From the sequence record OP114733: DNA of 64,000 nucleotides; one strand, 5' to 3'. A program made the position numbers and the translations under genes. This DNA is from Escherichia phage vB_EcoM-pEB20. Positions 1,770 to 17,040 of this stretch are shown one piece after another (within the stretch, counting starts at the first letter, position 1; the number at the start of each line of letters is the position of its first letter). The notes beneath the pieces were generated by a model, which saw only the letters and a list, made by a program, of their open reading frames with translations, had not been told where the DNA came from and searched no databases.

Positions 1770-1783
1770 TTTTCACAAAAACA

Positions 1784-1819
1784 GTTTACATAAGGATGAT
1801 GGTGTGTTACTATCATCCT
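1784..1819 (+). promoter_or_regulatory. early sigma70-type promoter (GTTTACA ... TACTAT) with inverted repeat AGGATGAT/ATCATCCT around -10
   Basis: -35 GTTTACA at 1784, ~18 nt spacer, -10 TACTAT at 1808; IR arms flank -10. Confidence 0.55.
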
Positions 1820-1849
1820 ATCAAATAAACAAACCAAACGGAAAAACAA

Positions 1850-2161
1850 ATGAAAACTTATCAAGAGTTTATCGCTGAAGCTACTAAAGCCGATAAAAAT
1901 TTTATTATTAACACCACCGGTCCGTTAGATGATGAATACGCTAATGCTATTATTAAGTCAATTTCTAATCAAGGCGTTGAAGTAACAAATTTCGAATATA
2001 AGAAAAATGATACTTATATGGTAATTAGTATCAAAAAAGGTTCAAAGGCTAAAATTAAATCTGCATTTGGTGTTATGCGAGTTGACCAAATTGATAACCA
2101 TGATTTTTCACAAACAGGGGTCAAACGCCAGAATACTATTTCATCTAAAGGCATAAAATAA
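1850..2161 (+). CDS. internal-protein-like (capsid-targeted) protein, ipI-locus position
   Basis: 103 aa beginning MKTYQEFIAEA, the T4 internal-protein capsid targeting sequence; located after 57B like T4 ipI. Confidence 0.7.
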   Translation: MKTYQEFIAEATKADKNFIINTTGPLDDEYANAIIKSISNQGVEVTNFEYKKNDTYMVISIKKGSKAKIKSAFGVMRVDQIDNHDFSQTGVKRQNTISSKGIK

Positions 2162-2162
2162 T

Positions 2163-2197
2163 TTACAACACGATAGGACTATGTTATAGTAGTCCTA
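2163..2197 (+). promoter_or_regulatory. early promoter embedded in perfect inverted repeat ATAGGACTA..TAGTCCTAT (PeSL-like)
   Basis: TTTACA at 2163, -10 TATAGT at 2185, IR arms 2173-2181 and 2189-2197. Confidence 0.55.
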
Positions 2198-2222
2198 TCA
2201 AAACAACAAAATGGAACCTAAA

Positions 2223-2486
2223 ATGAAAACTTTCAACGAATTCATCTCAGAATCGTCTGGTATGAAAATTAACAAAGCGGTCAATCAGGTTATTGCTGAT
2301 ATTCTTAATTTGTATAACATTGACTTAACTCCGCATATCACGCTTGGTAACAAACGAAACTTTTTCGTATTTGACACATCCGAACTTGATGAAAATCAGT
2401 TCAATAACATTCAACGTTTTGCGAATGATAAAGGTCTTCGACACGAGCCTGGTGGCTATAAAAAATACGCAATATATTTGAAATAA
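2223..2486 (+). CDS. small protein with capsid-targeting-like N-terminus
   Basis: 87 aa from internal ATG; starts MKTFNEFISES (CTS variant); track ORF begins 12 nt earlier. Confidence 0.55.
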   Translation: MKTFNEFISESSGMKINKAVNQVIADILNLYNIDLTPHITLGNKRNFFVFDTSELDENQFNNIQRFANDKGLRHEPGGYKKYAIYLK

Positions 2487-2489
2487 AGG

Positions 2490-2525
2490 TATACAAGCCT
2501 ATAGGGATATGTTATAGTAGTCCTA
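2490..2525 (+). promoter_or_regulatory. early promoter with inverted repeat ATAGGGATA..TAGTCCTAT (PeSL-like)
   Basis: TATACA at 2490, -10 TATAGT at 2513; third copy of the TAGTCCTATCAAAACAA motif. Confidence 0.5.
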
Positions 2526-2534
2526 TCAAAACAA

Positions 2535-2741
2535 ATGAGTAAATGGAGAAATAAAATGAAACGCGCTGAACTGATTCGTAATGTTGCTGTAGTAATTGCT
2601 TCAATGGCTTTTAGCTTTTCAATGTTTGTAGGATTCATTTGTGGACTACTGACAACAACTGAAAACTCTATCTCATTGGTAGTAGCATTTCTAATCGGCT
2701 TAATCGCTATCGTTATGGATAAAATTGCAAAAGGTGAGTAA
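2535..2741 (+). CDS. small membrane protein
   Basis: 68 aa with two hydrophobic segments (VAVVIASMAFSFSMFVGFICGLL, LVVAFLIGLIAIV). Confidence 0.45.
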   Translation: MSKWRNKMKRAELIRNVAVVIASMAFSFSMFVGFICGLLTTTENSISLVVAFLIGLIAIVMDKIAKGE

Positions 2742-2742
2742 A

Positions 2743-3105
2743 ATGAAATATCACGTATATGCTGATTTTGAAGCAAATCCTTCTAAAGACCCTGATTGCC
2801 GTTTGATACGCAGACCATTTGATTCAGCGGCTCAAGCATGGGCTTGGATTAAAACTTGTACTCCTTCTTACACTTTCTTTGAAGTGGTAGACGATAACGG
2901 TGTTCTGCATCCGGAACCTACAGAAACTATTAATTTCCTTCTGTTTGCTGGTTACGATTGTTATCCTCTTGGCGGTATTGATGATCTTGTTGCTACAGGA
3001 AAAACTGTTGAGGCTCTTCGCGAAATTTATAAAAACGCAGAAGAAAATTTTGACTGGTATCATATTGTTGATGCTCATACCTTTGAAGTGGTGGAACATT
3101 CATGA
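2743..3105 (+). CDS. hypothetical protein
   Basis: 120 aa from ATG 2743 preceded by GGTGAG SD; track ORF starts at upstream TTG 2725. Confidence 0.55.
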   Translation: MKYHVYADFEANPSKDPDCRLIRRPFDSAAQAWAWIKTCTPSYTFFEVVDDNGVLHPEPTETINFLLFAGYDCYPLGGIDDLVATGKTVEALREIYKNAEENFDWYHIVDAHTFEVVEHS

Positions 3106-3392
3106 TTCTTTATGCTAAAGTGTCATCTATTGAGAACGGATACGAAAGCGATCAACGTGCAGCTAAAGCACTAGTCGATGACTACGGTATTCTGACTAAC
3201 TTTGAGGTTGAAAAGGTTTACATCGACCGTTCGTCTTCACAGGTCAAATTACTATGGGAAGACCGTAAATTTAATACAGTGAACTTTGATTTCTTTATTG
3301 AAACTGAATCAGGTCCAATGGAATATAATATTTTCAAGAATCCTTTGAAATTACGTTGCATTGAATATAATTACATTAATATGGTACGGTGA
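3102..3392 (+). CDS. hypothetical protein
   Basis: 96 aa ORF, ATGA overlap with upstream gene. Confidence 0.5.
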   Translation: MILYAKVSSIENGYESDQRAAKALVDDYGILTNFEVEKVYIDRSSSQVKLLWEDRKFNTVNFDFFIETESGPMEYNIFKNPLKLRCIEYNYINMVR

Positions 3393-3396
3393 GTAA

Positions 3397-3912
3397 ATGA
3401 ATATTTGTTTAGGCAGTACAATTCCTAAGGGTTACGTAATTGATGTCACCACTTCGGAAAATGATGGTGACAACTATAAAACTAAAACGTTGTTTGGTGT
3501 AGAAGAGCATGAGCTCCAACAGTTTAAATATCTCTTGAAGAAATTTAAGAGTCGTCATTCTAGCACTAAAGCTGAACATTACTGTGGTAATACACCATTC
3601 AGTGATTGCTCGCTTTTAATCTATGAATACTTGGTTGAAGGACTGTTCTCAGACCAGCTTTATCCAGAATTCATTAAAAAGGTCTTTGATATTGAAGTCG
3701 ACCTCGGTAATAAATCTGAAGAAGATGAATCACGTGTATTTGACCTGTTCCGTGAGAATGGATATTTGGTATCAGAAGGTCTCATTGATATTCTCGGCCA
3801 TGCTTCTGAATATTATGATTATGATTTCTTGCGTGTAGTTGAATGTGTTGAATTTGCTTATATTGAAGAAGAAATCGTTTTGCCGACTGTTAAAATGATT
3901 GATTTGCTTTAA
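3397..3912 (+). CDS. hypothetical acidic protein
   Basis: 171 aa ORF, no recognised motif. Confidence 0.55.
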   Translation: MNICLGSTIPKGYVIDVTTSENDGDNYKTKTLFGVEEHELQQFKYLLKKFKSRHSSTKAEHYCGNTPFSDCSLLIYEYLVEGLFSDQLYPEFIKKVFDIEVDLGNKSEEDESRVFDLFRENGYLVSEGLIDILGHASEYYDYDFLRVVECVEFAYIEEEIVLPTVKMIDLL

Positions 3913-3991
3913 GAATTATGTGTTATTATTAATTCATACCCTCTATTACCAAAGGTGCTCTAAAGTGCCTTTCATAATAGAAAGTTATTTA

Positions 3992-4065
3992 GGCCCTGTA
4001 GCTCAACGGTTAGCAGCAGTCCCCTCATAAGGGAAAGGTTACCAGTTCGAATCTGGTCTGGGTCA
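3992..4065 (+). tRNA. tRNA with CAU anticodon (Met or Ile2/lysidine type)
   Basis: Acceptor stem GGCCCTG/CTGGGTC, T-arm ACCAG-TTCGAAT-CTGGT, anticodon loop CTCATAA; no encoded CCA; D and anticodon stems each have one mismatch. Confidence 0.7.
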
Positions 4066-4071
4066 TATATT

Positions 4072-4148
<77 letters not shown>

Positions 4149-4166
4149 ACTTTAAGTGAGGAAAAT

Positions 4167-4511
4167 ATGAAAGGCAATATTTATCTGGTAGTTCATGATT
4201 TAACGTTTTATTTTAACGAACATGATACAGTTATTTCAGGCCGATTGATTAATTTGTTATACCAACACGCAGATTACATCTATGTTCAAAATGAATTCGG
4301 CCATTGGAAGTTCATTAAAAACCGTTCCAGGTTAACTAGTTTTGAATACTTTGACCGTAAAGACCTTTTAAACGAAATTCCATTGCAACATCGGTTCCAG
4401 AAACGCGAATCATTATATTATTGCCGTCATATACCAAACGCCGAATGTGTTAATGAAGCGATTAATCTATGGCGTCGGCGTCGAGAGCAAATTGATGATA
4501 TGCCAAAATAA
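4167..4511 (+). CDS. hypothetical protein
   Basis: 114 aa from ATG 4167 with GAGGA SD; track ORF start 4119 lies inside tRNA-Arg and is rejected. Confidence 0.55.
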   Translation: MKGNIYLVVHDLTFYFNEHDTVISGRLINLLYQHADYIYVQNEFGHWKFIKNRSRLTSFEYFDRKDLLNEIPLQHRFQKRESLYYCRHIPNAECVNEAINLWRRRREQIDDMPK

Positions 4512-4822
4512 GAAGCCGGGTCGCTACCGGCAAGTCGTCGGACTGATGTTCCCTGGGTAAGGACTAGCCTTAATAAATCTTTATGTTTTGTTAATGCTCC
4601 CTTACATCACAGCAGAAACGGCGCACAGAATTATCGATTCGAGGAAATATCTTTGCCGTAAGCCGAGTAGCGTTTTTGACGGAACGTTCGGATATGGTCG
4701 AGATATGGCCTTTTAAAAATATTAAGTAGCGTCAACTACTTAATAACCAGGTTCAAATCCCGGCGTTTCGTACAAACACTTGCCTTAGCAGGTGGAACCC
4801 CGACAAGGTTGCCGCAAGGCTT

Positions 4823-4853
4823 AGCCCCTTCCGAAAGGTTGGGGCTTTTTTTT
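4823..4853 (+). terminator. rho-independent terminator
   Basis: Hairpin AGCCCC..GGGGCT followed by T8 run. Confidence 0.7.
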
Positions 4854-4897
4854 GCATAATAATAAATAGATAAGTTAATTAACTTAGGAAAAGTAAC

Positions 4898-5362
4898 ATG
4901 AAATCATATGCAGAATTTTTGACTGAACAATCTAGTTCAGATGTAAAAGCCGCTGCGATTGCAGCAATTCAAGCAGGTAAATATTCTTACAAAGACGCCT
5001 CTGATGAAGAACGTTTCCGTTTTATTAGAGATTTTAAAGCCGAAGGTTTTACTAATGCTAATACTGTTAGCCGAGTTTTTAAAAGCCTAGCTGCGTCAGG
5101 TGAATTGTTCCAGAAAGCTACAGGTAAAGCACCTGCGCCAAAAACAGACCCTAAAGCAGCTCAAGAAAAAAATATCGCCAAAGGAATTATTTCTAAGTAT
5201 GAAGCAATTCTTAAAGAGCTTTTAGTAATCAAAACAGAAGGCCAGAAACTGGCACGAGCACATAGCTTCAAAGATAATCCTCACGCTCATAGCCTTGAGT
5301 ATGTTGAAGATATCCAAAAACTTATTAAAGACCGTATCTGGTCTGCTAAACAAATTAAATAA
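4898..5362 (+). CDS. internal-protein-like protein with CTS-like N-terminus
   Basis: 154 aa starting MKSYAEFLTEQ (CTS variant); Lys/Ala-rich. Confidence 0.6.
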   Translation: MKSYAEFLTEQSSSDVKAAAIAAIQAGKYSYKDASDEERFRFIRDFKAEGFTNANTVSRVFKSLAASGELFQKATGKAPAPKTDPKAAQEKNIAKGIISKYEAILKELLVIKTEGQKLARAHSFKDNPHAHSLEYVEDIQKLIKDRIWSAKQIK

Positions 5363-5368
5363 TAGAAT

Positions 5369-5396
5369 GCCCCTTCCTTATGGTTGGGGCCTTTTG
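5369..5396 (+). terminator. rho-independent terminator
   Basis: Hairpin GCCCC-ttccttatggtt-GGGGC then CTTTTGG; same hairpin recurs at 20605. Confidence 0.65.
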
Positions 5397-5428
5397 GTAT
5401 CTAGGGCATAAAAATATTTCATAAAGTT

Positions 5429-5457
5429 GTTTACTTCTTCCCTAGATGTGTTACTAT
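5429..5457 (+). promoter_or_regulatory. early promoter
   Basis: GTTTAC at 5429, 17 nt spacer, extended -10 TGtTACTAT. Confidence 0.55.
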
Positions 5458-5485
5458 AGACCTATCAAAACATGAGGAGAATATT

Positions 5486-5791
5486 ATGAGTCTTTACACT
5501 GAACTGAATAAAAAATCTGAAGAATCTGCTGAAACTATTTTTAAAAACGTGCAAAAGCGTATTTTAGAAAAGATGTATAACACCGCAGCTAAAGGTGAAA
5601 AATCTTGCCGGTTCCCGATGAGGTGTTCTTCCGATTTATGCGCAAATACTATTGAATGGCTGGAAAGTGAAGGTCTTACGGTAGAGAAAAACCCGGCGAC
5701 TTCTATTGACAGCGAATCATATATTAGTATTTCTTGGGATAAACCTCGTATGAATGAAGGACACTACAAGTTGTTAAGTTGGAAAAATTAA
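5486..5791 (+). CDS. hypothetical protein
   Basis: 101 aa, SD GAGGAGAA upstream. Confidence 0.5.
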   Translation: MSLYTELNKKSEESAETIFKNVQKRILEKMYNTAAKGEKSCRFPMRCSSDLCANTIEWLESEGLTVEKNPATSIDSESYISISWDKPRMNEGHYKLLSWKN

Positions 5792-5859
5792 AAATAATGA
5801 TGTACAAGCACCAAGGATGGTGATACTATAGACTTATCAACTACAGAGGAGTAAACAAA

Positions 5860-6024
5860 ATGACTACTTTAATTATTTGGTTTGATGAAAATGAAGAAAC
5901 ATACTGTGTGAATATTGGTGAAAGTCCAATGCCTGAATTTGAATCCTCGGATAAAAACTCTGTTGTATCTTGGGCTGAAGGTTATAAAGCAGCTAAAGGT
6001 GACGTTGAAATAATTTACATCTAA
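5860..6024 (+). CDS. small hypothetical protein (54 aa)
   Basis: Below track size cut-off; ATG 5860 preceded by AGAGGAG; translated by hand to stop at 6022-6024. Confidence 0.4.
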   Translation: MTTLIIWFDENEETYCVNIGESPMPEFESSDKNSVVSWAEGYKAAKGDVEIIYI

Positions 6025-6070
6025 GTAAGTTTATGTTATAGTAATCACAACAAATCAAGAGGAAAACAAA

Positions 6071-6298
6071 ATGGCTAAAGTTAGTATTGATGTCGTTGAT
6101 TATGAATACACTGAAGAAGTTATTCGCAACCGTCACCCTGAAGTTCGTATCGATTCAGTCCAAGATTCCAAGTTCTGGACAACCGAGCTTAATCTGAGTG
6201 GTCCTTATGAAGCTGTTAAGAAGTTCATGGTTGAAGAATACTGCGAAGGCATGCACCCCGAAGACGCCAAGTTTTATGTCAATTTGATTAAAAAATAA
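6071..6298 (+). CDS. hypothetical protein
   Basis: 75 aa ORF with SD AAGAGGAAAA. Confidence 0.5.
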   Translation: MAKVSIDVVDYEYTEEVIRNRHPEVRIDSVQDSKFWTTELNLSGPYEAVKKFMVEEYCEGMHPEDAKFYVNLIKK

Positions 6299-6334
6299 TT
6301 TACAAACTCTTGAGAGCAGAGTATAATGCTCTCA
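6299..6334 (+). promoter_or_regulatory. early promoter TTTACA..TATAAT flanked by IR TGAGAGCA/TGCTCTCA; near-identical copy at 36028
   Basis: -35 TTTACA 6299, -10 TATAAT 6322; about 45-bp repeat shared with 36028-36075. Confidence 0.55.
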
Positions 6335-6368
6335 TTGGATAATAAACCACCAATTGAAAGGTAATAAT

Positions 6369-6962
6369 ATGAACACACTGAAGAAACTTGTTGAATTCAT
6401 CCGCACTAAACTGGGTACTGCTATGGCTAAAAATCTGACTGTCGAAGAACAGTATAACGCAGCTGCAGATAAGTTGATTACCCAAATCAAAGAACTAAAA
6501 ACAGCTTCTGTTAAATCTATTAATGAAGAAAAACGTATTCGCGAACTTGTTAATGAAAAGAACAAGCAAGCCGCTTCTAAGGAACGTGAAATTCGTAAGC
6601 TCTTGGCTGAAGGACAAGATGTTACCATGCATGCTAAGCTTGGTCTTCTGTATCGTCGAACTGCCGAACAACTTAATACAAAAGCTGACGGATATGCCGC
6701 TATGCGAATTGAAATTGCTCGTAAGGTGGTTGAACTTGACGATGCTCGTCAGAACCTGGCAATCAAACTCGAATACATTCGTGAAACTCGAGCAGCCAAT
6801 GCCCTTGGTATCTCTACGGCCGATGATGTAATTGAAATCGCTGCACTGACTAAGGTTGATATCGAAGACACTCTGACTCGTGTTGAAACGTTCAATGGCA
6901 CTCCAGTCGGCGTCGAAACCACTTCTGCTGATGTACAAGAATATATTAACTCTTTGAAATAA
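6369..6962 (+). CDS. coiled-coil hypothetical protein
   Basis: 197 aa from ATG 6369; Lys/Glu-rich heptad-like sequence. Confidence 0.6.
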
Positions 6963-6970
6963 AATAATAC

Positions 6971-6992
6971 GGAGGACTCCGGTCCTCCTTTT
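6971..6992 (+). terminator. rho-independent terminator
   Basis: Hairpin GGAGGAC-tccg-GTCCTCC followed by TTTTGG. Confidence 0.7.
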
Positions 6993-7011
6993 GGATAATA
7001 AAGGAGTTAAC

Positions 7012-7614
7012 ATGCGAAACCAAAATAATGATATTGACTCAATGTTCGAAGAGTTCCGAGATAAGGTAAATCCACCTACGTCTTTAGTTGATTCATTACG
7101 ATATGTTGCAACCGGACGTAAATGGTACTGGTCGTCTTCTTATGAGACCGCCGAGAAAACGGCTAGCCATAGCAGAAAATCTTTATTAGCCCCAGGTATT
7201 ATGATTCATGATATCGGAGCTATTGCTAAACTAGTTGCAGACCATGATATTAGATTCACTGATTTCGTTGCTCCTACGTGGTCTGTTTGTTGTTTAAACA
7301 CTGAATGGGAATATATCAGCGAACGCTCTGAAGATTATTATGGTTTTAGAGATAAGCTTCTGAGGTCTAATATGTTTTATATCGATACAGAAGTTCTAGT
7401 CGATAATAAAAAATATTACTTTACGTTAATCATCGATTCTGAAACTATGTATGAAGGCAAGCCTTTGCTTAAAAGAGTTGATGCTTTAAGTGCTATTGAT
7501 GCGCTTTATGAAACTATGGTTGTTAGTCCTAATTTCACTAACAATTTAATCCTTGAGCAATTTATTATGGAATGTAGAGAATATGTCAAAGCCAACCCTA
7601 TACATGCCAAGTAA
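7012..7614 (+). CDS. hypothetical protein, C-terminus carries the QFIMECR motif
   Basis: 200 aa from ATG 7012 with AAGGAG SD; C-terminal motif shared with four membrane proteins. Confidence 0.6.
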   Translation: MRNQNNDIDSMFEEFRDKVNPPTSLVDSLRYVATGRKWYWSSSYETAEKTASHSRKSLLAPGIMIHDIGAIAKLVADHDIRFTDFVAPTWSVCCLNTEWEYISERSEDYYGFRDKLLRSNMFYIDTEVLVDNKKYYFTLIIDSETMYEGKPLLKRVDALSAIDALYETMVVSPNFTNNLILEQFIMECREYVKANPIHAK

Positions 7615-7978
7615 GCCCTGGGCATACGAATACAAACGTAAATTAATCCCAAATGAAGTACTATTTGGCCCTATTTTAGCTTTAGCATTTTTAATCTTTA
7701 TGATTATAGGAGCTATTTTAGATTCTAGTGAAGTTATATCGTCTGATGCAGTGTTTTTACTTATTATAGTCGGGTCGTTTATTGTGCCATTTTTATTAAT
7801 GCCTATTAATTGGGTAGGATATTGGCACCAAGGCCGTCATCACAGAGCCCGATTAAGAGAATGGAAAGTTCAGTGCGCAAAAGCCCAAGCTCAGTATGAT
7901 GAAGCTGTTAAAAAGTATGAATATGAAGAAGCTATGGAATTCGTTAAGGAAATAAGATGCAAAAGCCTCAACTCTTAA
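7583..7978 (+). CDS. membrane protein of the [NR]FI-x-EC-R C-terminal family
   Basis: Two predicted TM helices; C-terminal EFVKEIRCK; start uncertain (7583 or 7604). Confidence 0.5.
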   Translation: MSKPTLYMPSKPWAYEYKRKLIPNEVLFGPILALAFLIFMIIGAILDSSEVISSDAVFLLIIVGSFIVPFLLMPINWVGYWHQGRHHRARLREWKVQCAKAQAQYDEAVKKYEYEEAMEFVKEIRCKSLNS

Positions 7979-8316
7979 CCGTATGGCCTTCTCTTGGTGA
8001 GAACATTCTAATTTTTATTATGAGTATTGGCATGGGATTTGCCTTTGGATTAGTTGGATTTCTTATTGACGGCGTTGTGTTAGGATTTATAGGGAACACT
8101 GGTGGATTCACAGACCAATGGCAGGACTTACGATATACTCAAGCCTTTGCATCCATTGCATCATTTTGTACTATAGTCTATTTTTACTACGATTTTATAA
8201 ACCATAACAAGAAAAATAAAAAGGTTTACGCTTCTCAAATGATTAGTTATAATGAACTCCTAGCTAGACGTGAAAATGAAACAATCGAAAACTTTATTAA
8301 GGAATGTAGAAAATGA
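7957..8316 (+). CDS. membrane protein of the NFIKECR C-terminal family
   Basis: 119 aa, TM segments, C-terminal ENFIKECRK. Confidence 0.55.
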   Translation: MQKPQLLTVWPSLGENILIFIMSIGMGFAFGLVGFLIDGVVLGFIGNTGGFTDQWQDLRYTQAFASIASFCTIVYFYYDFINHNKKNKKVYASQMISYNELLARRENETIENFIKECRK

Positions 8317-8618
8317 GTAAGATTATTGAAATTAAAGTACCAGAGTTTAATGATGCCAAATCCGCTTCAGATGCAATTTATAAACTTCTGAATCAAGCTG
8401 AACGTATCGAAGAAGAAGCAACAAAGATCGCAGACCAATATGCCGTATCATTTTCTGTAGGTGATTATGGTAGCGGTCGTACTTATTATCCTAAGGGTGA
8501 AATCGTATCCCAGTGGATGAAAGATGAAATTGAAAATAATGGTGGCGATGTTAAGCGTGAAGGTAATGGTTACGTTATTACTGAAGGTGCTTGGGTTTCG
8601 TCTTCTGCGTTGTGCTAA
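8313..8618 (+). CDS. small protein, paralog 1 of GWVSSSxxC family
   Basis: 101 aa ending GAWVSSSALC. Confidence 0.55.
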   Translation: MSKIIEIKVPEFNDAKSASDAIYKLLNQAERIEEEATKIADQYAVSFSVGDYGSGRTYYPKGEIVSQWMKDEIENNGGDVKREGNGYVITEGAWVSSSALC

Positions 8619-8627
8619 GGAATCATT

Positions 8628-8900
8628 ATGTCTAAAGAACAAACCGAACTGGCTGAAGCTGTAGCAAAAATCTATGCAGCTATTGAGGCTGCCAAAGAAA
8701 TTGCTGATAAACAAAACACAACATTCGACTTGTACCCAGCTTATGGTATGGGTGGAACCTATCATTCACCCGGACATCTTAAAGCCGATCTTGAACGTTG
8801 TACAAAAAACGGCTATGCTGAATGGGCTGACGTTTACCAATACGACTACAACCTGAGCCTTGAAGATGGCGGTTGGGTTGCATCTTCTCACACTTGCTAA
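8628..8900 (+). CDS. small protein, paralog 2 of GWVSSSxxC family
   Basis: 90 aa ending GGWVASSHTC; junction TGCTAAGGAA gives SD for itself. Confidence 0.55.
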   Translation: MSKEQTELAEAVAKIYAAIEAAKEIADKQNTTFDLYPAYGMGGTYHSPGHLKADLERCTKNGYAEWADVYQYDYNLSLEDGGWVASSHTC

Positions 8901-8909
8901 GGAAACAAT

Positions 8910-9107
8910 ATGTCTCGTGAATTAGATTGTGCTGTACGTACGGCAGTAGCTGCTCTGGAAAACCTGTTCCAAATTGCAACAGAAGAACGCGAAGAAGTTA
9001 CATTATGGATTGAAGATAACGCAGGTCTGAATCTCCAGGACGCGATCTCATTATCCCACAATAGTATCACTGTTCAAGGCTGGGTATCATCTAGTTATTC
9101 TTGCTAA
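8910..9107 (+). CDS. small protein, paralog 3 of GWVSSSxxC family
   Basis: 65 aa ending QGWVSSSYSC. Confidence 0.5.
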   Translation: MSRELDCAVRTAVAALENLFQIATEEREEVTLWIEDNAGLNLQDAISLSHNSITVQGWVSSSYSC

Positions 9108-9111
9108 AACA

Positions 9112-9148
9112 GTTTACAACAAGATAGGGCTATGTTATAGTAGTCCTA
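9112..9148 (+). promoter_or_regulatory. early promoter in IR ATAGGGCTA..TAGTCCTAT (PeSL-like)
   Basis: GTTTACA 9112, -10 TATAGT 9136. Confidence 0.55.
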
Positions 9149-9169
9149 TCAAAACAAATGGAGTCCACA

Positions 9170-9409
9170 ATGATTTATTACGAAAGTATCGGAACCAAAG
9201 TGGTTGGTAAAACCATTACTCGTGAAAAGTTTGCAAAGATATTCGATATGCGTTATAAAAAATCTGAACACAAAGGCATCCGATTCGAAGATGCGCACTG
9301 TACAATTTGCCCTTATAATGAAGACATAAACGGTACAATCGTTCCATTGGTAGAGGCTTCACATGATGACCTCTGGGATGAATATGATATCGCATGTCGT
9401 GAAATTTAA
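9170..9409 (+). CDS. hypothetical protein
   Basis: 79 aa from ATG 9170 (GGAG SD 6 nt upstream). Confidence 0.5.
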   Translation: MIYYESIGTKVVGKTITREKFAKIFDMRYKKSEHKGIRFEDAHCTICPYNEDINGTIVPLVEASHDDLWDEYDIACREI

Positions 9410-9437
9410 GTTAATGAATTAATCCGAGGAAAATATT

Positions 9438-10394
9438 ATGATGTTGGTTATTGGTTCTCGTGCACTTCACTATCACGGTCTTATTGATTCTAGCGCTATT
9501 AAAAATAGTGATTGGGACTTTATTGCGGACCAATGTTCTTGGAATGCATTCAAAAATCAAATGATGGGTGTATATGTTCACCAAGATAACCCTGATGTCC
9601 AAGTTTTCAAATGCTTCCATAATGGACGCGAAACTCATTTTGAAGCATATATTGTTCCGGCAATCACTAATGTCCGTGAATTAGTCGGTGAACTCACTCC
9701 TGAAGATTTCACGTCTTCTTATGACCTTTTAAAATACGCCAAGAAAAATTTGACTAAAGACCGTTTGAACGGGTTTTACTGGGCAACTCCTGAGATATGT
9801 CTTGCAATTAAGATGTCTCATCGTTTCAAGAAAAATAATCCATTCTTTTTAAAGACTATGAACCATATTCAGTATCTTCGTGGTAAAGGTGTTACACTGG
9901 ACGATGAACTTACTGAAATTATGCTGAAACGCCAGAAAGAAACCTTGAATTATGCTCACCCAGTTCTTGACACTTCTAAAAGTGCGTTCTTTAAAGATGA
10001 CATCTATACATATGACCATGATACTATTCATGAAGCCATTGCACTAACAGACCGTCCAGCGTATACATTTTACATGAAAGATGGTTCTGAAGTCATGACC
10101 TCACGCGAGAAGTTCGAATCATTACCAGAAATGGTCAAATTGGCTGGTGTATACGAAGAATCATGTGTACTAGCGTTAGAACGTTCTCAGATTCCTAATA
10201 ACTTTGAAATCCATCCACGTGATAGTTTTATGATGGCTCTTGAAAAGGTCTGTACTTCAATCACATCAGGTTGGTTCCGTGAATACGCCTGGGAAAACCA
10301 CAGCAAAGTAGTAAGTATGTACCAAAGCTTAGGACATGACGATTACGTCAAACGTTTCAAACAAAATTTCCATATGGTAAAACCTTTCAAATAA
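9438..10394 (+). CDS. hypothetical protein with weak nucleotidyltransferase-like N-terminal motif
   Basis: 318 aa; VIGSRALHYHG...SDWDF resembles the G[SG]...D-x-D NTase signature; unverified. Confidence 0.55.
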   Translation: MMLVIGSRALHYHGLIDSSAIKNSDWDFIADQCSWNAFKNQMMGVYVHQDNPDVQVFKCFHNGRETHFEAYIVPAITNVRELVGELTPEDFTSSYDLLKYAKKNLTKDRLNGFYWATPEICLAIKMSHRFKKNNPFFLKTMNHIQYLRGKGVTLDDELTEIMLKRQKETLNYAHPVLDTSKSAFFKDDIYTYDHDTIHEAIALTDRPAYTFYMKDGSEVMTSREKFESLPEMVKLAGVYEESCVLALERSQIPNNFEIHPRDSFMMALEKVCTSITSGWFREYAWENHSKVVSMYQSLGHDDYVKRFKQNFHMVKPFK

Positions 10395-10406
10395 TTTCGC
10401 AAAACT

Positions 10407-10444
10407 GTTTACATCTTGATAGGACTATGTTATAGTAGTCCTAT
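10407..10444 (+). promoter_or_regulatory. early promoter in IR ATAGGACTA..TAGTCCTAT (PeSL-like)
   Basis: GTTTACA 10407, -10 TATAGT 10431. Confidence 0.55.
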
Positions 10445-10464
10445 TAAAACATGAGGAGAATATT

Positions 10465-10770
10465 ATGAAATTAGGCGAAACCAACCGAATTGGTCTTTTA
10501 ACAATATTTGTATCACTTTTTTACGCAGCTCTTTCTGTTGCAGTATTACAAAAGGCTTACAGTATGGATGGTGTTCCTGGTTTTGTATTCTTATCGCCGT
10601 TTTTGCTATTCGTTGGAGCATTGTTATTATATGCCACGACTAGTTTCGACCATAATGTCTGGGTCAATTATAAATGTAAATTGTCTGAAGAAGAACACGC
10701 AGAAGCTCGTAAAAAAGCTATTGAATCTACCAATCTAGAAAATTTCATTAAAGAATGTCGAGGAAAATAA
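10465..10770 (+). CDS. membrane protein of the NFIKECR C-terminal family
   Basis: 101 aa, two TM helices, C-terminal ENFIKECRGK; SD GAGGAG. Confidence 0.55.
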   Translation: MKLGETNRIGLLTIFVSLFYAALSVAVLQKAYSMDGVPGFVFLSPFLLFVGALLLYATTSFDHNVWVNYKCKLSEEEHAEARKKAIESTNLENFIKECRGK

Positions 10771-10771
10771 T

Positions 10772-11458
10772 ATGAATAGTTCTAAAGTGTTTAATAGTCA
10801 AGCTCGTGCAGTAGGTGGTTTTGCTCATGCGATTAAAAATGACCAGATTAAAAACGAGCCTATGTTCTTTAACTGCGATTTGAATTTTGCTTTTGATAAT
10901 GGCGGCCCAATTACTCGTAGCTTTATCCAAAATCTTCCTGACGATTGGAAAGACTCGGATGTAGTATTTGATTCACGAGTCCACATGTTGATGCCTGGTT
11001 GGTATCCTGCTATCCCAGGTTATCACCATGACGATGTACCACGCCCGGATATTCCGGTTGGTCAACATTTTATTACTGCAGGACAACCTGACTATGACAA
11101 CCCTCGTTACCATTCTGAACATATTCTTGGTCTTGTTAACGCTGATGTGTGTCCTACTCATTTTGCAACAGGAACTGCAGAGTTCAGTCAGATTCCTGAT
11201 GGCGAACTTATCTATCGCCAGTGGCACAAAGAAGTCCTCGAAAAAATTGAAAAAGGTGAACTAGAGAAATGGGAAGCTCCAGACCGTACTCTTCTTCAGT
11301 TTGATTGGCAAACATGGCACACTGGCTCTCATGCAATTAGTAATGGATGGCGTTGGTTCGGACGTGTATCTCGTAATACAGACCGAGTTAAAAAGATTAC
11401 CAATGAAATTCGTGTCAATGCTCAAGTTTATCTGGAATTCCCTATGGAAGGCTGGTAA
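10772..11458 (+). CDS. hypothetical protein, possible Fe(II)/2-oxoglutarate dioxygenase fold
   Basis: 228 aa; His-x-Asp (YHHDD), distal His (WHTGSH) and Arg-x-Ser (GRVSR) in the order typical of 2OG oxygenases; unverified. Confidence 0.55.
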   Translation: MNSSKVFNSQARAVGGFAHAIKNDQIKNEPMFFNCDLNFAFDNGGPITRSFIQNLPDDWKDSDVVFDSRVHMLMPGWYPAIPGYHHDDVPRPDIPVGQHFITAGQPDYDNPRYHSEHILGLVNADVCPTHFATGTAEFSQIPDGELIYRQWHKEVLEKIEKGELEKWEAPDRTLLQFDWQTWHTGSHAISNGWRWFGRVSRNTDRVKKITNEIRVNAQVYLEFPMEGW

Positions 11459-11949
11459 TGATTAACAAAACATATTGGTCTAATATTGACGACGGCAATG
11501 AAGGTATTTCGTACTATTCAGTGGATTGGACAGGATGTCCATCCTACTTAGTGAAACATATTTGCCAAGAATTTAAAATCGACCAGCCAGCAGGTATTAT
11601 TGTGAACAGATACATTAATGGATATCAACCTATCGATGAAGTAATACGAACAACTCAAGCTGAGCTTGAAAAGTTTTTCAATAAGTGCCAATGGATAACA
11701 GGATGGATTATATTTGTACCGTCGGTATGGTTTTTTAGTACTAAGGTGAGTTCTTTCGGTTTTGTTGATATTACTGCTATCTTATTAGCATCTAGTATCA
11801 TAAGTGTTGTTGGTGGCATCATTGGCGGCGGTGCCGCCGCTATCATTATTAATCTTATTAAAAGTAGTTTACAAGAACGTAAAGACAAGATAAAAGCCAA
11901 GAATAATGAAGTTGAACGTTTTATTACCGAATGCAGGAATTTGAGATGA
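11458..11949 (+). CDS. membrane protein of the NFIKECR-like C-terminal family
   Basis: 163 aa, TM helix and Gly-rich segment, C-terminal ERFITECRNLR. Confidence 0.55.
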   Translation: MINKTYWSNIDDGNEGISYYSVDWTGCPSYLVKHICQEFKIDQPAGIIVNRYINGYQPIDEVIRTTQAELEKFFNKCQWITGWIIFVPSVWFFSTKVSSFGFVDITAILLASSIISVVGGIIGGGAAAIIINLIKSSLQERKDKIKAKNNEVERFITECRNLR

Positions 11950-12182
11950 GTATAGCAATTTACATTAAATCAGAATCATGTGATAGTTATCTGTACACAT
12001 ACGATAAAGATGTGTCAGAAGAAAAAATCAAAGACGACCTTAATATGGACCTTGATATGTTCTGTCCTATTGCAGATTACAAACTTGCGGTCTCTAATAG
12101 TGAAAGTCCATCTAAAGAAACGCGCATTGAAGAATTTATGTCCGAATTAATGGCCAAATCATGGGACCGAGATGATGAGTAA
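11946..12182 (+). CDS. small acidic hypothetical protein
   Basis: 78 aa; ATGA overlap with upstream gene. Confidence 0.45.
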   Translation: MSIAIYIKSESCDSYLYTYDKDVSEEKIKDDLNMDLDMFCPIADYKLAVSNSESPSKETRIEEFMSELMAKSWDRDDE

Positions 12183-12630
12183 GAAAAATAAAGTGAAAGA
12201 ACTATCAGCCGGTATTATTTTCCTTACCGAAGATAAAGAATTATTCATGGGGCGTGTAACTGGTTCTCGTCCTAAAGGTTCTTTAGCTCATCGGTGGGAT
12301 ATTCCTAAAGGACGTGTCGAGCCCGGTGAATCTCCTATTGAAGCCGCTATTCGCGAATGCGAAGAAGAAACTGGGTTTACACAATATGACCCTGCCTTCC
12401 TGAAAGACCTAGGTGAACATCATTACTCAGACAATAAGAATATTCATCTGTTCCTATATACCATCCCTGTAGAGCACGAGCAATTCAGAAACAGTGTTTG
12501 TAATTCCTATCATACATTCCCAGACGGACGACAGATTCCTGAATTTGATGCATTCGCTTTAATTAAACCTTCTCAATGGGAATATGTAATGGGCAAATCA
12601 TTATATAGGGTGCTCACTACCCTCCTATAA
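12172..12630 (+). CDS. nudE: Nudix hydrolase NudE
   Basis: 152 aa with Nudix box GRVEPGESPIEAAIRECEEETG; immediately upstream of e as T4 nudE (e.1). Confidence 0.85.
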   Translation: MMSKKNKVKELSAGIIFLTEDKELFMGRVTGSRPKGSLAHRWDIPKGRVEPGESPIEAAIRECEEETGFTQYDPAFLKDLGEHHYSDNKNIHLFLYTIPVEHEQFRNSVCNSYHTFPDGRQIPEFDAFALIKPSQWEYVMGKSLYRVLTTLL

Positions 12631-12638
12631 GTAATAAA

Positions 12639-12662
12639 TACCTCCTATAAACATGGGAGGTA
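12639..12662 (+). promoter_or_regulatory. SD-sequestering hairpin with embedded late-promoter-like TATAAACA upstream of lysozyme gene
   Basis: TACCTCC-tataaacatg-GGAGGTA; 3' arm is the e gene SD; same arrangement described for T4 e. Confidence 0.6.
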
Positions 12663-12664
12663 TT

Positions 12665-13153
12665 ATGAATATATTTGAAATGCTTCGTAATGACGAAGGT
12701 CTTAGACTGACTTTATACAAAGACACTGAAGGCTTTTGGACGATTGGCATCGGCCATTTAGTAACAAAGAACCCGTCTTTAGCCGTAGCTAAAGCTGAAC
12801 TTGACAGAATGATCGGTCGTAAATGCAACGGTACAATTACCCTTGATGAGGCTGAAAAGCTATTTAATGAAGACGTTGATAAAGCCGTCCGCGGAATCTT
12901 GGGTAATGCTAAACTTAAACCGGTATATGATTCTTTAGATGCGGTTCGTCGATGCGCATTGGTTAATATGGTCTTCCAAATGGGTGTATCAGGCGTCGCC
13001 GGTTTTACTAATTCTCTTCGTATGCTTCAACAGAAACGTTGGGATGAAGCGGCAGTAAATCTAGCCCAATCTAAATGGTATCGTCAGACACCTAATCGTG
13101 CGAAACGCGTAATCTCAACATTTAAAACAGGAACTTGGAAAGCGTATATATGA
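12665..13153 (+). CDS. e: lysozyme (endolysin) e
   Basis: 162 aa [15 protein letters not shown]...; near-identical to T4 lysozyme including catalytic E11/D20/T26 region. Confidence 0.95.
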
Positions 13154-13431
13154 AAACATATAGTGAATTTTTATCAGAATCTATTCTTAACGAAGCTACT
13201 GACACATTTGCAACTAAGCTAGGTGCAGCTTTGGTTGAAGCTGAAAGTCTATTAGCACGTATTTCTGAACTTGCTAGTAAGATAGATACTCGCAAATTTG
13301 AACGTACCAGCGATATCGCTAAGCTTGAAGCCTTGTTACGTATGTGCGATAAACCGGAAGAAATCGCTAAGAACGGCTCGCTAATGAAACAACGTCTTGA
13401 AAAATATATTTCAGGCGCTTCGGAAAAATAG
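13150..13431 (+). CDS. internal-protein-like protein with CTS
   Basis: 93 aa starting [11 protein letters not shown]; ATGA overlap with e stop. Confidence 0.6.
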
Positions 13432-13432
13432 T

Positions 13433-13486
13433 GTTTACTTCCTCCAAGGACTTTGATACTATACATTCATCAACTACTTGGAGGAA
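13433..13486 (+). promoter_or_regulatory. early promoter with long IR TTCCTCCAAG/CTTGGAGGAA spanning promoter and SD of denV
   Basis: GTTTAC 13433, -10 TACTAT 13457; 3' IR arm contains SD GGAGGAA. Confidence 0.55.
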
Positions 13487-13489
13487 ATT

Positions 13490-13903
13490 ATGACCCGTAT
13501 CAATTTAACACTTGTTTCTGAACTGTCCGACCAACATCTTATGGCTGAGTATCGTGAATTACCACGCGTATTTGGTGCAGTCCGTAAACATGTTCAAAAC
13601 GGTAAACGTGTAAAGGATTTTAAAATCTCTCCAACATTTATCTTAGGCACAGGTCACGTAACATTCTTTTACGACAAACTCGAATTTTTACGTTTACGAC
13701 AAATCGAGCTAATCGCTGAATGCTTGAAACGTGGTTTCAAAATCAAGGACACGACTGTCCAGGATATTTCCGACATCCCTGCCGAATTTCGTAATAATTA
13801 TGTCCCGTCCGAAGCGTCCATTGCGATAAGTCAAGCACGCTTAGATGAAAAAATTGCTCAACGTCCGACTTGGTACAAATACTATGGTAAATCAATTTAC
13901 TAA
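13490..13903 (+). CDS. denV: endonuclease V (pyrimidine dimer DNA glycosylase) DenV
   Basis: 137 aa [29 protein letters not shown]...; near-identical to T4 endo V. Confidence 0.95.
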
Positions 13904-13910
13904 GGAAAAA

Positions 13911-14171
13911 ATGAAAATGTATCAAGAATTTATCACTGAAGCAGATGCCAAAGGTCCTAAATTTAAAGTTAAAGCTTTCATTGGTGATGCGGAAGACTTT
14001 GGCTCATTAAAACGTAATGGGTATTCTTTCTTAGGTGGCAATGGTAAAGAAATCAACACCTATGCAAAACGTAGTGAAATTGCTTATGTTGTAGCAAGCC
14101 CTAAAGTAGATGTTGACGATATTGGATACGATTTTAACAACTTCGGAATTATTTCTGGCGGTAAAGATTAA
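13911..14171 (+). CDS. internal-protein-like protein with CTS
   Basis: 86 aa starting MKMYQEFITEA; SD AAGGAAA. Confidence 0.6.
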   Translation: MKMYQEFITEADAKGPKFKVKAFIGDAEDFGSLKRNGYSFLGGNGKEINTYAKRSEIAYVVASPKVDVDDIGYDFNNFGIISGGKD

Positions 14172-14174
14172 ATT

Positions 14175-14204
14175 GTTTACGCTTAAGTATTAATATGGTA
14201 TAAT
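14175..14204 (+). promoter_or_regulatory. early promoter
   Basis: GTTTAC 14175, 18 nt spacer, TATAAT 14199. Confidence 0.5.
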
Positions 14205-14235
14205 TACTCTATCAAAACAAACAAGGAAACAAAAA

Positions 14236-14550
14236 ATGAAAACGTATAAAGAATTTATTGCAGAATCCGCCAACCAACGCGTTGAAGGTGGTTATATTTG
14301 GATTGAACAAGTTGAGCCACCGAGCCGCACTTCTACAGGTAAATGGAAAATTACTGTTGACGGTCCTGGCGGTAAACGTAGGACTCTTAAAGAAATTAAC
14401 GGGTACTATGAAGAAGCTCTTTCGGATGCAGGAACTTACATGATGCAAATCATGATTAAAAACCCTGAAAACCGTTTTGCAGCTAAAGTCTTCCGCCGTA
14501 TTGGTAATAAACTTTATGATGCATACTCTAAAAACTTCCCTAAAGAATAA
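14236..14550 (+). CDS. internal-protein-like protein with CTS
   Basis: 104 aa starting MKTYKEFIAES. Confidence 0.65.
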   Translation: MKTYKEFIAESANQRVEGGYIWIEQVEPPSRTSTGKWKITVDGPGGKRRTLKEINGYYEEALSDAGTYMMQIMIKNPENRFAAKVFRRIGNKLYDAYSKNFPKE

Positions 14551-14575
14551 CATAAATTAAAACAATAGGAACAAA

Positions 14576-14905
14576 ATGAAAACATATCAGGAGTTTATCA
14601 CTGAAGTTACATTATCTGCGGAACAGAAAGCTGCTATCGAAGAAGGTAAAAATCCCAAAGTAACATATAAAGTAAATAGTAAAGGCGTTTTTGATGGCTT
14701 GGTTCAAGACCCTGAATTGAAAAAAGCTCTTTCTAAAACTAATGCGTACTTTGCTCCTAAATTTAACACAGCCGGTGTACTTATTGGATTGGATGTATTC
14801 AACTCTAAAGGTGTTCTATCTAATGCCTTTGGTTATGCCGCTAACAAAATTACCAAAGCCGCATGGGAATCCAATACCAAACAAGCTCAAAAGCCTAGAG
14901 TATAA
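14576..14905 (+). CDS. internal-protein-like protein with CTS
   Basis: 109 aa starting MKTYQEFITEV. Confidence 0.65.
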   Translation: MKTYQEFITEVTLSAEQKAAIEEGKNPKVTYKVNSKGVFDGLVQDPELKKALSKTNAYFAPKFNTAGVLIGLDVFNSKGVLSNAFGYAANKITKAAWESNTKQAQKPRV

Positions 14906-15077: not shown

Positions 15078-15617
15078 ATGAGAACATTTTTAACTGGACC
15101 TTATCTATCCCTGATGAATGCTTTTACACACCATTCTGATGCTAGAGTAGAAGAAATTTGTAAGAACGGTTATGTCCCGCCATTTGAAGACGTACTCAAG
15201 CAGTACTGCACACTTCGTTTAGACGGCGGCCGACAATCAGGTAAATCAATTGCTGTGACTAACTTTGCTGCTAATTGGCTGTATGATGGTGGAACAGTTA
15301 TTGTTCTTTCTAATACTTCAGCTTATGCTAAAATTTCTGCTGGCAACATTAAAAAAGAATTTTCTCGTTATTCTAGCGATGATATTCGATTCCGTTTATT
15401 TACTGATTCTGTTCGTAGTTTTATTGGCAATGAAGGTTCTAAATTCCGTGGATTAACGCTTTCTCGTATTCTGTATATAATTGACGAGCCTATTAAAGCT
15501 CCTGATATGGATAAGATTTACAATGTACATATTAAAACAGTCCAACACTGTTGCAAAAGCAAATATTGCATCGGCGGTAATGCTCGTCCTCAATTTTTTG
15601 TGATTGGAATGCAATGA
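15078..15617 (+). CDS. P-loop NTPase-like hypothetical protein
   Basis: 179 aa from ATG 15078; Walker A GGRQSGKS and Walker B-like ILYIIDEP. Confidence 0.55.
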   Translation: MRTFLTGPYLSLMNAFTHHSDARVEEICKNGYVPPFEDVLKQYCTLRLDGGRQSGKSIAVTNFAANWLYDGGTVIVLSNTSAYAKISAGNIKKEFSRYSSDDIRFRLFTDSVRSFIGNEGSKFRGLTLSRILYIIDEPIKAPDMDKIYNVHIKTVQHCCKSKYCIGGNARPQFFVIGMQ

Positions 15618-16291: not shown

Positions 16292-16515
16292 TGGCTAAAT
16301 TGATTATAGAAGGGTCTGAAGATGTTTTAAAATGTTTTGCCGCCTGGTTTAGTTGCTCAGGCGAGCAATCATTCACTGAAGCATTTAGAACGGGTGATAT
16401 TACTGGAAAATATCCGACAACCGATATCACTGTACGTGGATATGGTATTAATGAGCCTATCCAATTGGTCGAATATGACCTTGCCACCGATGAGGAAATT
16501 CCTTATGTCGATTGA
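16291..16515 (+). CDS. hypothetical protein
   Basis: 74 aa ORF. Confidence 0.45.
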   Translation: MAKLIIEGSEDVLKCFAAWFSCSGEQSFTEAFRTGDITGKYPTTDITVRGYGINEPIQLVEYDLATDEEIPYVD

Positions 16516-16771
16516 AGACATCAAAGGCTACAAGCCGCATACCGATGATAAAATCGGTAAAGTGAACGCTATTAAAGATGCAGAAGTCCGTCTTGGATTG
16601 TTGTTTGATGCTCTGATTGAAGAAGCATATATCTTGAAAGAAAATGAAACAGAGCAACAAACCAAAGAAGATATGGATGCAGTGCAGGCTCTTAAGTATG
16701 CTAAGCAACATCTAAAAGAAGCCAGCATGTGGGCGTGTCGTGCAGTATTTCGACCTGAGGAAAAATACTAA
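16505..16771 (+). CDS. small helical hypothetical protein
   Basis: 88 aa from ATG 16505 with GAGGAAA SD; track ORF start 16337 is out of frame with neighbour and rejected. Confidence 0.45.
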   Translation: MSIEDIKGYKPHTDDKIGKVNAIKDAEVRLGLLFDALIEEAYILKENETEQQTKEDMDAVQALKYAKQHLKEASMWACRAVFRPEEKY

Positions 16772-16986: not shown

Positions 16987-16990
16987 AGTA

Positions 16991-17040
16991 GTTTACTTCT
17001 CCTCTAGTTGTGTTACTATAGACCTGTCAACTAGAGGAGA
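16991..17040 (+). promoter_or_regulatory. early promoter with 13-bp IR TCTCCTCTAGTTG/CAACTAGAGGAGA spanning -10 and SD
   Basis: GTTTAC 16991, -10 TACTAT 17015; 3' arm includes GAGGAGA SD of regB. Confidence 0.55.

Follow-up and report, generated by a model that had tools for sequence, protein, structure and literature searches.

Seven genes with an internal-protein targeting sequence in the RB69-like Escherichia phage vB_EcoM-pEB20

The closest described counterparts of the genes considered here are the internal proteins (IPs) IPI, IPII and IPIII of phage T4. According to a 2022 review of Black's work, residues 1–10 of IPIII suffice for incorporation into the head; targeting acts mainly via residues 4 and 7 and processing by the prohead protease gp21 (gp, gene product) via residues 8 and 10, and Asp at position 10 blocks cleavage while targeting is kept (PMC9026906). 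The T4 proteins have three different GmrSD enzymes as targets: IPI* inhibits GmrSD, and Ip2 and Ip3 inhibit one other GmrSD each, with no cross-protection (PMC12373910). We analyzed a stretch of 64,000 nt of Escherichia phage vB_EcoM-pEB20 (sequence record OP114733; the whole stretch is called the window below), in which seven open reading frames (ORFs), named here by their start positions, begin with a capsid targeting sequence of this kind, the tag. We consider it very probable that the seven are members of the T-even internal-protein system in the genus Mosigvirus, with products that are packaged, cleaved and injected and that most probably act against host defense. This view draws on the motif, the gene positions, the homology to named Ips, the slot-wise mixture of bodies and one swap boundary, all of which are directly observed.

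With the T4 IPs, the present genes share the N-terminal targeting sequence, the [IL]-x-E gp21 site, the genomic neighborhoods, the early-promoter layout and a similar size and basic charge. They differ from them in that the seven bodies are not detectably related and that all three T4 types are missing from the present phage. A further series, Ip4 to Ip13 of the T-even phages, is credited to Repoila et al. 1994 by PMC3012670 and PMC12373910. Polymorphic loci, a conserved tag and unrelated bodies are common to that series and to the present genes, with ORF 14236 of the Ip10 type (phage Pol) and ORFs 2223 and 1850 of the Ip9 and Ip7 types (both RB15), whereas ORFs 4898 and 14576 have no Ip name in the inspected records and ORF 4898 is in neither of the "two Ip loci" described (PMC12373910).

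Two other systems are comparable in part. In the promoter/stem-loop (PeSL) shuffling cassettes of T4-type phages (PMC2839356, PMC4122927), as here, elements of ~65 nt with a promoter and an inverted repeat precede both IP and non-IP genes, but at the present IP genes the 5′ recombination arm reaches into the coding sequence through the tag. The Dar (defense against restriction) proteins of phage P1, like other ejected anti-restriction proteins, are likewise loaded into the head during assembly and injected to shield the incoming DNA from restriction (PMC12810830); the proteins themselves, their packaging signal and their targets (type I restriction-modification) are, however, unrelated, and they lack a short cleavable universal tag.

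The targeting sequence and its bearers

When all six frames of the 64 kb were searched with the motif MK[TSM][YF]xEF[IL][AST]E as a regular expression, exactly seven matches were obtained, all on the plus strand, whereas 5e-6 matches are expected by chance for this strict motif from the six-frame amino-acid composition of the window. Even a much looser pattern revealed no eighth copy in these six frames. The seven tagged ORFs reported in a preliminary description of the window were thereby recovered at the same starts, each beginning with the motif. Their features are as follows (pI, isoelectric point).

1850..2161, plus strand: internal-protein gene, Ip7 family; 103 amino acids; tag MKTYQEFIAE, then A; predicted mature product 93 amino acids, 10.3 kDa, pI 9.5
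2223..2486, plus strand: internal-protein gene, Ip9 family; 87 amino acids; tag MKTFNEFISE, then S; predicted mature product 77 amino acids, 8.9 kDa, pI 9.0
4898..5362, plus strand: tag-bearing gene, third locus; 154 amino acids; tag MKSYAEFLTE, then Q; predicted mature product 144 amino acids, 16 kDa, pI 9.6
13150..13431, plus strand: internal-protein gene; 93 amino acids; site LSE↓S; predicted mature product ~9 kDa, pI 6.3
13911..14171, plus strand: internal-protein gene, 8 nt after denV; 86 amino acids; tag MKMYQEFITE, then A; predicted mature product 76 amino acids, 8.2 kDa, pI 6.5
14236..14550, plus strand: internal-protein gene, Ip10 family; 104 amino acids; tag MKTYKEFIAE, then S; predicted mature product 94 amino acids, 10.8 kDa, pI 9.6
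14576..14905, plus strand: tag-bearing gene; 109 amino acids; tag MKTYQEFITE, then V; predicted mature product 99 amino acids, 10.7 kDa, pI 9.7

For three of these genes the mechanical ORF list gave longer upstream starts (2211, ATG; 13135, TTG; 13845, ATG). The methionine of the motif is the start in homologues and has a GGA-type ribosome-binding site 6–10 nt upstream. The ten-residue tag is conserved as protein and not as DNA; Thr3, Glu6, Phe7 and Ile8 or Leu8 are encoded by alternative synonymous codons (ACT/ACA/ACG, GAA/GAG, TTT/TTC, ATC/ATT and TTG/TTA in codons 3, 6, 7 and 8).

The tag of ORF 1850 is identical to MKTYQEFIAE, with which both IPII and IPIII of T4 open, and the IPI tag is a variant, MKTFKEFTST...TITE↓A (the arrow marks the cut), with a propeptide of 19 residues. 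The targeting residues (Y/F at position 4, F at position 7) and the processing residues (I/L at position 8, E at position 10) are kept in all seven proteins. Because residues 4, 7, 8 and 10 all fit the T4 determinants, the likeness reaches the gp21 cleavage site, a point on which the preliminary description had made its interpretation depend. The predicted gp21 sites are, in gene order, IAE↓A, ISE↓S, LTE↓Q, LSE↓S, ITE↓A, IAE↓S and ITE↓V. A second one, SILNE↓A, is present in ORF 13150 (residues 12–15). The P1′ residues Q (ORF 4898) and V (ORF 14576) are less typical, as A and S dominate at this position in the at least 155 distinct tagged ORFs that a scan with the tag coding pattern found in IMG/VR, but L, Q, R and V do occur there. 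These ORFs fall into at least 59 body families. For the seven genes of the window, mature products of 8–16 kDa are predicted, five of them with a pI of 9.0–9.7, the range also of T4 IPI, IPII and IPIII.

Tagged genes were counted in the homologous regions of other phages, yielding seven in RB69 (two with damaged tags), seven in mogra, six in Shf125875, four in p000v and three in T4. Five related genomes carry 4–7 tagged genes in the same slots, with differing bodies that include T4-type IPI, IPII and IPIII. The preliminary description had set the seven genes against only three in T4. The figure for T4 is right for the homologous region and the count of seven stands, but seven is ordinary for RB69-type phages, as RB69 and mogra show.

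The seven genes differ in how far they can be linked to named proteins. Three belong to families of the 1994 naming (Ip7, Ip9 and Ip10), ORFs 13150 and 13911 match only proteins that databases label "internal head proteins", and no homology of ORFs 4898 and 14576 to any named internal protein was encountered. Altogether, four PHROG families annotated as "internal head protein" were matched. Six of the seven protein sequences are present identically in public collections, and the exact sequence of ORF 13911 is absent from a collection of 15 billion proteins.

ORF 1850 matches phrog_2667 ("internal head protein") with E = 2e-38. An identical protein in phage p000v is annotated as "internal head protein", the mogra homologue as "internal head protein 7", and identities are ~66% to Ip7 of Shf125875, 67% to ip7 of CC31 and 98% to RB69ORF156c. 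ORF 2223 matches phrog_7673 ("internal head protein"; E = 2e-48) and is 70% identical to RB15 Ip9 (Q38376). ORF 13150 matches phrog_3499 ("internal head protein"; E = 2e-46) and has the same label in UniRef and in some GenBank records. ORF 13911, a member of phrog_2667 and phrog_35655, is 95% identical to RB69ORF125c and is called "internal head protein" in some records. ORF 14236 shares a 90%-identity cluster with Ip10 of phage Pol (CAA84455) and with Tequatrovirus proteins labeled IpII or "internal head protein"; it is 72% identical to VR7 ip10, and its RB69 homologue, RB69ORF124c (RB69 16332–16604), has an altered, shorter C-terminus.

The two remaining genes are linked to the system by their tags and positions. 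ORF 4898 belongs to phrog_2280 (unknown function). Its family occurs in 511 phage records, including Tequatrovirus, and is called "hypothetical" or "unknown function" throughout among the matches listed. All full-length homologues keep a tag, and one of them, g140 of Yersinia phage phiD1 (Tequatrovirus), lies in the same slot and opens with MKSYTQFLNE↓A. ORF 14576 occurs in 90 phage records and is "hypothetical" among the matches listed, except for one relative in Dhakavirus, labeled "RNA polymerase ADP-ribosylase". Among 1.84 billion representatives, a single distant family was found for it (39% identity), whose member in Dhakavirus ESCO10 is also tagged (MKTYKQFITE). We regard the ADP-ribosylase label on this ESCO10 homologue as an annotation error; the proteins concerned are tagged, 100–120 amino acids long and encoded next to denV. 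In ESCO10 (OM386655), two adjacent tagged genes (MKTYKQFITE.. and MKTYQEFITE..) lie by denV at 2447–3114 and are labeled RNA polymerase ADP-ribosylase/ADP-ribosyltransferase.

The internal-protein phenomenon, the three family names and the arms-race interpretation have already been published (cited from 1994 onward; PMC3012670), and the T4-genomes review of Petrov 2010 does not mention internal proteins. A modest new point is the probable internal-protein status of the ORF 4898 and ORF 14576 families. Further additions of this kind are a third IP slot after rnaC, an exact recombination boundary at the edge of the tag and tag-less Ip9 homologues in siphoviruses, as detailed below.

Unrelated bodies in conserved slots

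Behind the tag, the seven proteins are wholly divergent. An all-against-all BLASTP search with the bodies only (residue 11 to the end; database of 17 sequences) gave a single marginal pair, ORF 1850 and ORF 2223, with 28% identity over 42 amino acids and E = 0.002. Single-linkage clustering together with 155 other tag-bearing ORFs placed the seven bodies in seven separate families. When body-only family alignments were compared by hhalign, no pair reached a probability of at least 20%, neither among the seven nor against T4 IPI, IPII and IPIII. All three methods agree with the earlier statement that the bodies are unrelated. Shared PHROG membership, which places ORFs 1850 and 13911 in phrog_2667 and ORFs 14236 and 14576 in phrog_3966, was considered as a sign of hidden kinship and found no support by BLAST, clustering or hhalign; we explain it by the tag that they share or by heterogeneous phrogs.

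None of the seven proteins had an above-threshold hit when scanned against Pfam and NCBIfam. AlphaFold2 models were inspected for the two genes lacking a named relative. The model of ORF 4898 consists of two helical domains (mean confidence, pLDDT, 73), and that of ORF 14576 is a compact alpha+beta structure (pLDDT 79; predicted template-modeling score, pTM, 0.69). In both, confidence is low around the tag (block pLDDT 42 and 52), in keeping with a free propeptide. Neither model had a PDB match at E ≤ 0.001, the best values being 2.2 and 0.2. In BFVD, ORF 14576 matched itself, the Dhakavirus relative and uncharacterized proteins, mostly from T4-like phages, at a template-modeling (TM) score of ~0.5. 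A weak resemblance of ORF 14576 to multi-repeat proteins with the MBG_2 adhesin domain in an exhaustive HMMER search (pairwise E ~2e-4 per repeat) was not confirmed and is probably compositional, since Pfam made no domain call and the alpha+beta model has no significant PDB match.

The first 15 kb of the window are 94–97% identical over >90% of the length to RB69 and ~70 further RB69-type coliphages (genus Mosigvirus); for RB69, identity to the window is ~96%. The gene order matches the RB69 annotation, with gene 1, 57A, 57B, two small ORFs, tRNA.4 to tRNA.2, tRNA-Met, tRNA-Arg, the e.x genes and nudE, followed by e (lysozyme), a small ORF, denV, three small ORFs and then vs.8. Relative to T4, the plus strand of the window is the counter-clockwise early strand. 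Six of the seven tagged genes lie in the two classical IP loci, one from 57B to tRNA.4 and the other around denV, between e and vs.8. These are the neighborhoods of ipI and of ipII/ipIII in T4. Within the second locus, the ATG of ORF 13150 overlaps the TGA stop codon of the lysozyme gene e (ATGA, 13150–13153), which suggests that the two are translationally coupled.

ORF 4898 is the only tagged gene outside the classical loci and occupies a separate slot past rnaC. The corresponding slot holds an unrelated tagged body in RB69 (ORF149c; MKTYAEFLTE) and is empty in T4. The position after rnaC thus behaves as a third IP slot, in addition to the "two Ip loci" of the literature.

Bodies also differ between close relatives at the other positions. 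Sister Mosigvirus genomes carry T4-type IPI, IPII or IPIII where the present phage has the Ip9, Ip10 or ORF 14576 type. The slot of ORF 2223 is occupied in RB69 by a T4-type ipI, and here the limits of the exchange can be located. Nucleotide homology to RB69 runs to position 2249, within the tag of ORF 2223 (codon 9), and returns at 2489, 3 nt past the stop codon; the stretch in between holds ipI in RB69 and the Ip9-type body in the present phage. The 3′ edge of this swap falls in a PeSL-like element of ~65 nt.

Six copies of this intergenic element were found in the window (1782–1849, 2159–2233, 6011–6073, 9111–9173, 10407–10470 and 14173–14235). Each consists of GTTTAC, a spacer of 17 nt and a TATAGT/TATAAT promoter box, with the −10 box inside an inverted repeat, followed by a leader of the CTATCAAAAC type. 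Three copies precede IP genes (ORFs 1850, 2223 and 14236) and three precede non-IP genes (elements at 6011, 9111 and 10407). The T4 ip genes have the same early-promoter/stem-loop layout, as seen at T4 ipI. The promoters at the three IP genes are as follows.

1785..1813, plus strand: early-type sigma-70 promoter TTTACA-17-TACTAT in an inverted repeat; PeSL-type, upstream of ORF 1850
2162..2190, plus strand: early-type promoter TTTACA-17-TATAGT, with TG, in an inverted repeat GATAGGACTA..TAGTCCTATC; upstream of ORF 2223
14176..14204, plus strand: early-type promoter TTTACG-17-TATAAT, with TG; upstream of ORF 14236

Tag-less versions of the Ip9-type body are present in about ten Kagunavirus-like siphoviruses (43–45 kb). 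In Bas70 (PQ850619), a siphovirus of 43 kb, gene 0057 (2507–2725; 72 amino acids) shares 57% identity with the ORF 2223 body, starts at a methionine matching M14 and is the first gene of the early rightward operon. Its annotation as "internal head protein" presumably arose via homology transfer. Because the Ip9 body occurs tag-less in siphoviruses, the tag is an add-on module that was fused to pre-existing small phage proteins.

These observations suggest how the repertoire may turn over by recombination. The DNA encoding the tag, together with the promoter/stem-loop element upstream, would provide the 5′ homology arm, with the following intergenic element as the 3′ arm, so that unrelated bodies could be exchanged slot by slot between phages. 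In a metagenomic chimera of 94 amino acids, the N-terminal two-thirds resemble a tRNA.3-like protein (window 2725–3105) and the last 30 residues are ~90% identical to the C-terminus of ORF 4898, which is evidence of illegitimate or short-homology recombination in this region.

Proposed packaging and function, with alternative explanations

Judged by tag, position and homology, the seven products would follow the route described for T4. Through the capsid targeting sequence of ten residues, the nascent protein would bind to the scaffolding core that gp22 forms in the prohead, and gp21 would cut after Glu10 and, in ORF 13150, possibly also after Glu15. The small mature protein of 8–16 kDa, basic in five of the seven cases, would be freed and stay amid the packaged DNA, and would be ejected with it, hence being in the cell before any phage gene is expressed. 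There it would most probably act as an inhibitor of narrow specificity against a first-response defense of the host. By analogy with T4 Ip1–Ip3, the likeliest targets would be modification-dependent type IV nucleases of the GmrSD family, which attack the sugar-modified cytosines of these phages. To call each of the seven a candidate counter-defense factor, as had been proposed beforehand, is in line with the stated view of the field (PMC3012670, PMC12373910). The background given for that proposal, IPI* acting against GmrSD, is correct for IPI* but too narrow, as Ip2 and Ip3 are also GmrSD inhibitors and ip4–10 have been screened.

Several observations weigh against packaging or against the assumed function. 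Unlike the T4 IPs, two of the mature products are predicted to have a near-neutral pI (6.3 and 6.5). Neither the gp21 nor the gp22 gene was found in the 64 kb window, so that the machinery is assumed from RB69, the closest sequenced relative, whose gp21 and gp22 are 88% and 76% identical to their T4 counterparts. Within 250 nt upstream of all seven genes, there is no canonical late promoter (exact TATAAATA); the same holds for the T4 ip genes. The searchable literature contained nothing usable on virion proteomics or cleavage for these proteins or for RB69-type phages. Two RB69 homologues have damaged tags. RB69ORF127c (15248–15529), with a body 99% identical to ORF 13150, no longer has site 1 (MKTYMNFYQN) but retains LNE↓A, like the longer propeptide of IPI, and RB69ORF123c (16673–17002), with a body identical to that of ORF 14576, has E10 replaced by A. 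Because of this damage, single IPs evidently can decay in laboratory or natural lineages; the copies in the window are intact. As to function, ip4–10, a set that includes Ip7, Ip9 and Ip10, showed no reproducible inhibition when tested against 15 GmrSD groups (PMC12373910, 2025). Moreover, no body resembles IPI, IPII or IPIII by BLAST, clustering or hhalign or, for the models of ORFs 4898 and 14576, any solved structure, and the target class is therefore assigned by pure analogy.

Some of these points would also fit a chiefly structural or physical role of the packaged proteins, which would serve as basic counter-ions or fillers in DNA condensation or ejection, most of them having no specific anti-defense target. 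About 1000 IP molecules are embedded in the DNA of each T4 head (PMC3012670), five of the seven would be small and basic when mature (pI 9.0–9.7), their bodies have no recognizable fold or domain, and the screen of ip4–10 was negative (PMC12373910). We nevertheless consider this improbable, as all three T4 IPs proved to be GmrSD-specific after the right hosts had been tested (PMC12373910), two of the present products are not basic, and the Ip9 body also occurs in siphoviruses without a packaging tag. Slot-wise replacement and at least 59 body families fit diversifying selection in an arms race better than a generic role of charge. A second alternative would make the tag a by-product of a shuffled gene-start cassette (promoter, 5′ untranslated region and first codons), with early cytoplasmic proteins that are not packaged at all. 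The amino acids of the tag, however, are conserved despite synonymous differences, and this exactly at the four positions mapped in T4. Four of the seven genes keep the tag without a PeSL of their own, and other PeSL-preceded genes of the window (6071, 9158 and 10465) do not start with it. Three of the seven do have PeSL-type early promoters directly upstream, none has a canonical late promoter, the swap boundary lies at the tag, and IPIII, which is needed on strain ECOR17, still works when made in the host without its tag (PMC9391042), but the T4 ip genes have the same early-promoter layout and their products are packaged (PMC9026906). On balance, this second alternative seems highly unlikely.

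If the seven proteins are injected anti-defense factors, as we prefer to read them, their targets might still be other than GmrSD, for instance other nucleases, BREX-associated factors or systems specific to phages with arabinosylated DNA. The cytosine of Mosigvirus DNA is arabinosylated and is not glucosyl-hydroxymethylcytosine, yet arabinosylated DNA is still cut by GmrSD-family enzymes (PMC6024577, PMC13390438). Relatives of three of the seven failed against the 15 GmrSD groups, although the diversity of GmrSD extends far beyond the groups tested. The Ip9 body heads an early operon in Kagunavirus-like siphoviruses, and no homologue of IPI, IPII or IPIII is present in the window; on the other hand, every internal protein of known target so far acts on GmrSD (PMC12373910). 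We therefore regard such targets as possible, with the greater weight on the other side. A tentative suggestion along these lines is that IPs of arabinosyl-cytosine phages may mainly target first-response defenses beyond the tested GmrSD groups, and that ORF 4898, at a third hotspot after rnaC in ~500 T-even genomes, and ORF 14576 may represent unrecognized IP families. The tag-less Ip9 of siphoviruses would then imply a target that is independent of T-even DNA modification.

Internal proteins are the only phage counter-defense factors present in the cell upon arrival of the DNA and would thus influence which strains are open to infection by a therapeutic T-even phage. A list of tagged genes per genome is a cheap source of candidates for anti-defense screens and could explain host-range differences among near-identical Mosigvirus isolates. 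The capsid targeting tag has, moreover, proved its use in bringing foreign proteins into the heads of T4. The practical gain of the present analysis is that the ORF 4898 and ORF 14576 families are flagged as probable IPs, that a third slot is identified and that the Ip9 body proves to be a free-standing module captured by the tag; beyond these three points, the overall finding holds nothing new in principle.

Neighboring genes and RNAs

Homologues of two small stable RNAs of T4 lie 3′ of tRNA-Met and tRNA-Arg, rnaD at 4508–4626 (87% identity) and rnaC at 4634–4772 (97% identity); neither matched an Rfam family. A GC-rich, terminator-like hairpin with a T-run follows at ~4828–4855, directly before ORF 4898.

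Between the two classical IP loci, three small paralogous ORFs stand in tandem (8313–8618, 8628–8900 and 8910–9107; 101, 90 and 65 amino acids), corresponding to RB69ORF139c–136c. All three start with MSK/MSR and have the motif GWV(S/A)SSxxC conserved at the C-terminus. Predicted membrane proteins of the e.2/e.3/e.4 group (7957–8316, 10465–10770 and 11458–11949) have the C-terminal motif F-I-(K/T)-E-C-R in common, to which the product of 7553–7978 conforms more loosely. The shared motif suggests that these proteins may form a paralogous family with a common cytoplasmic tail.

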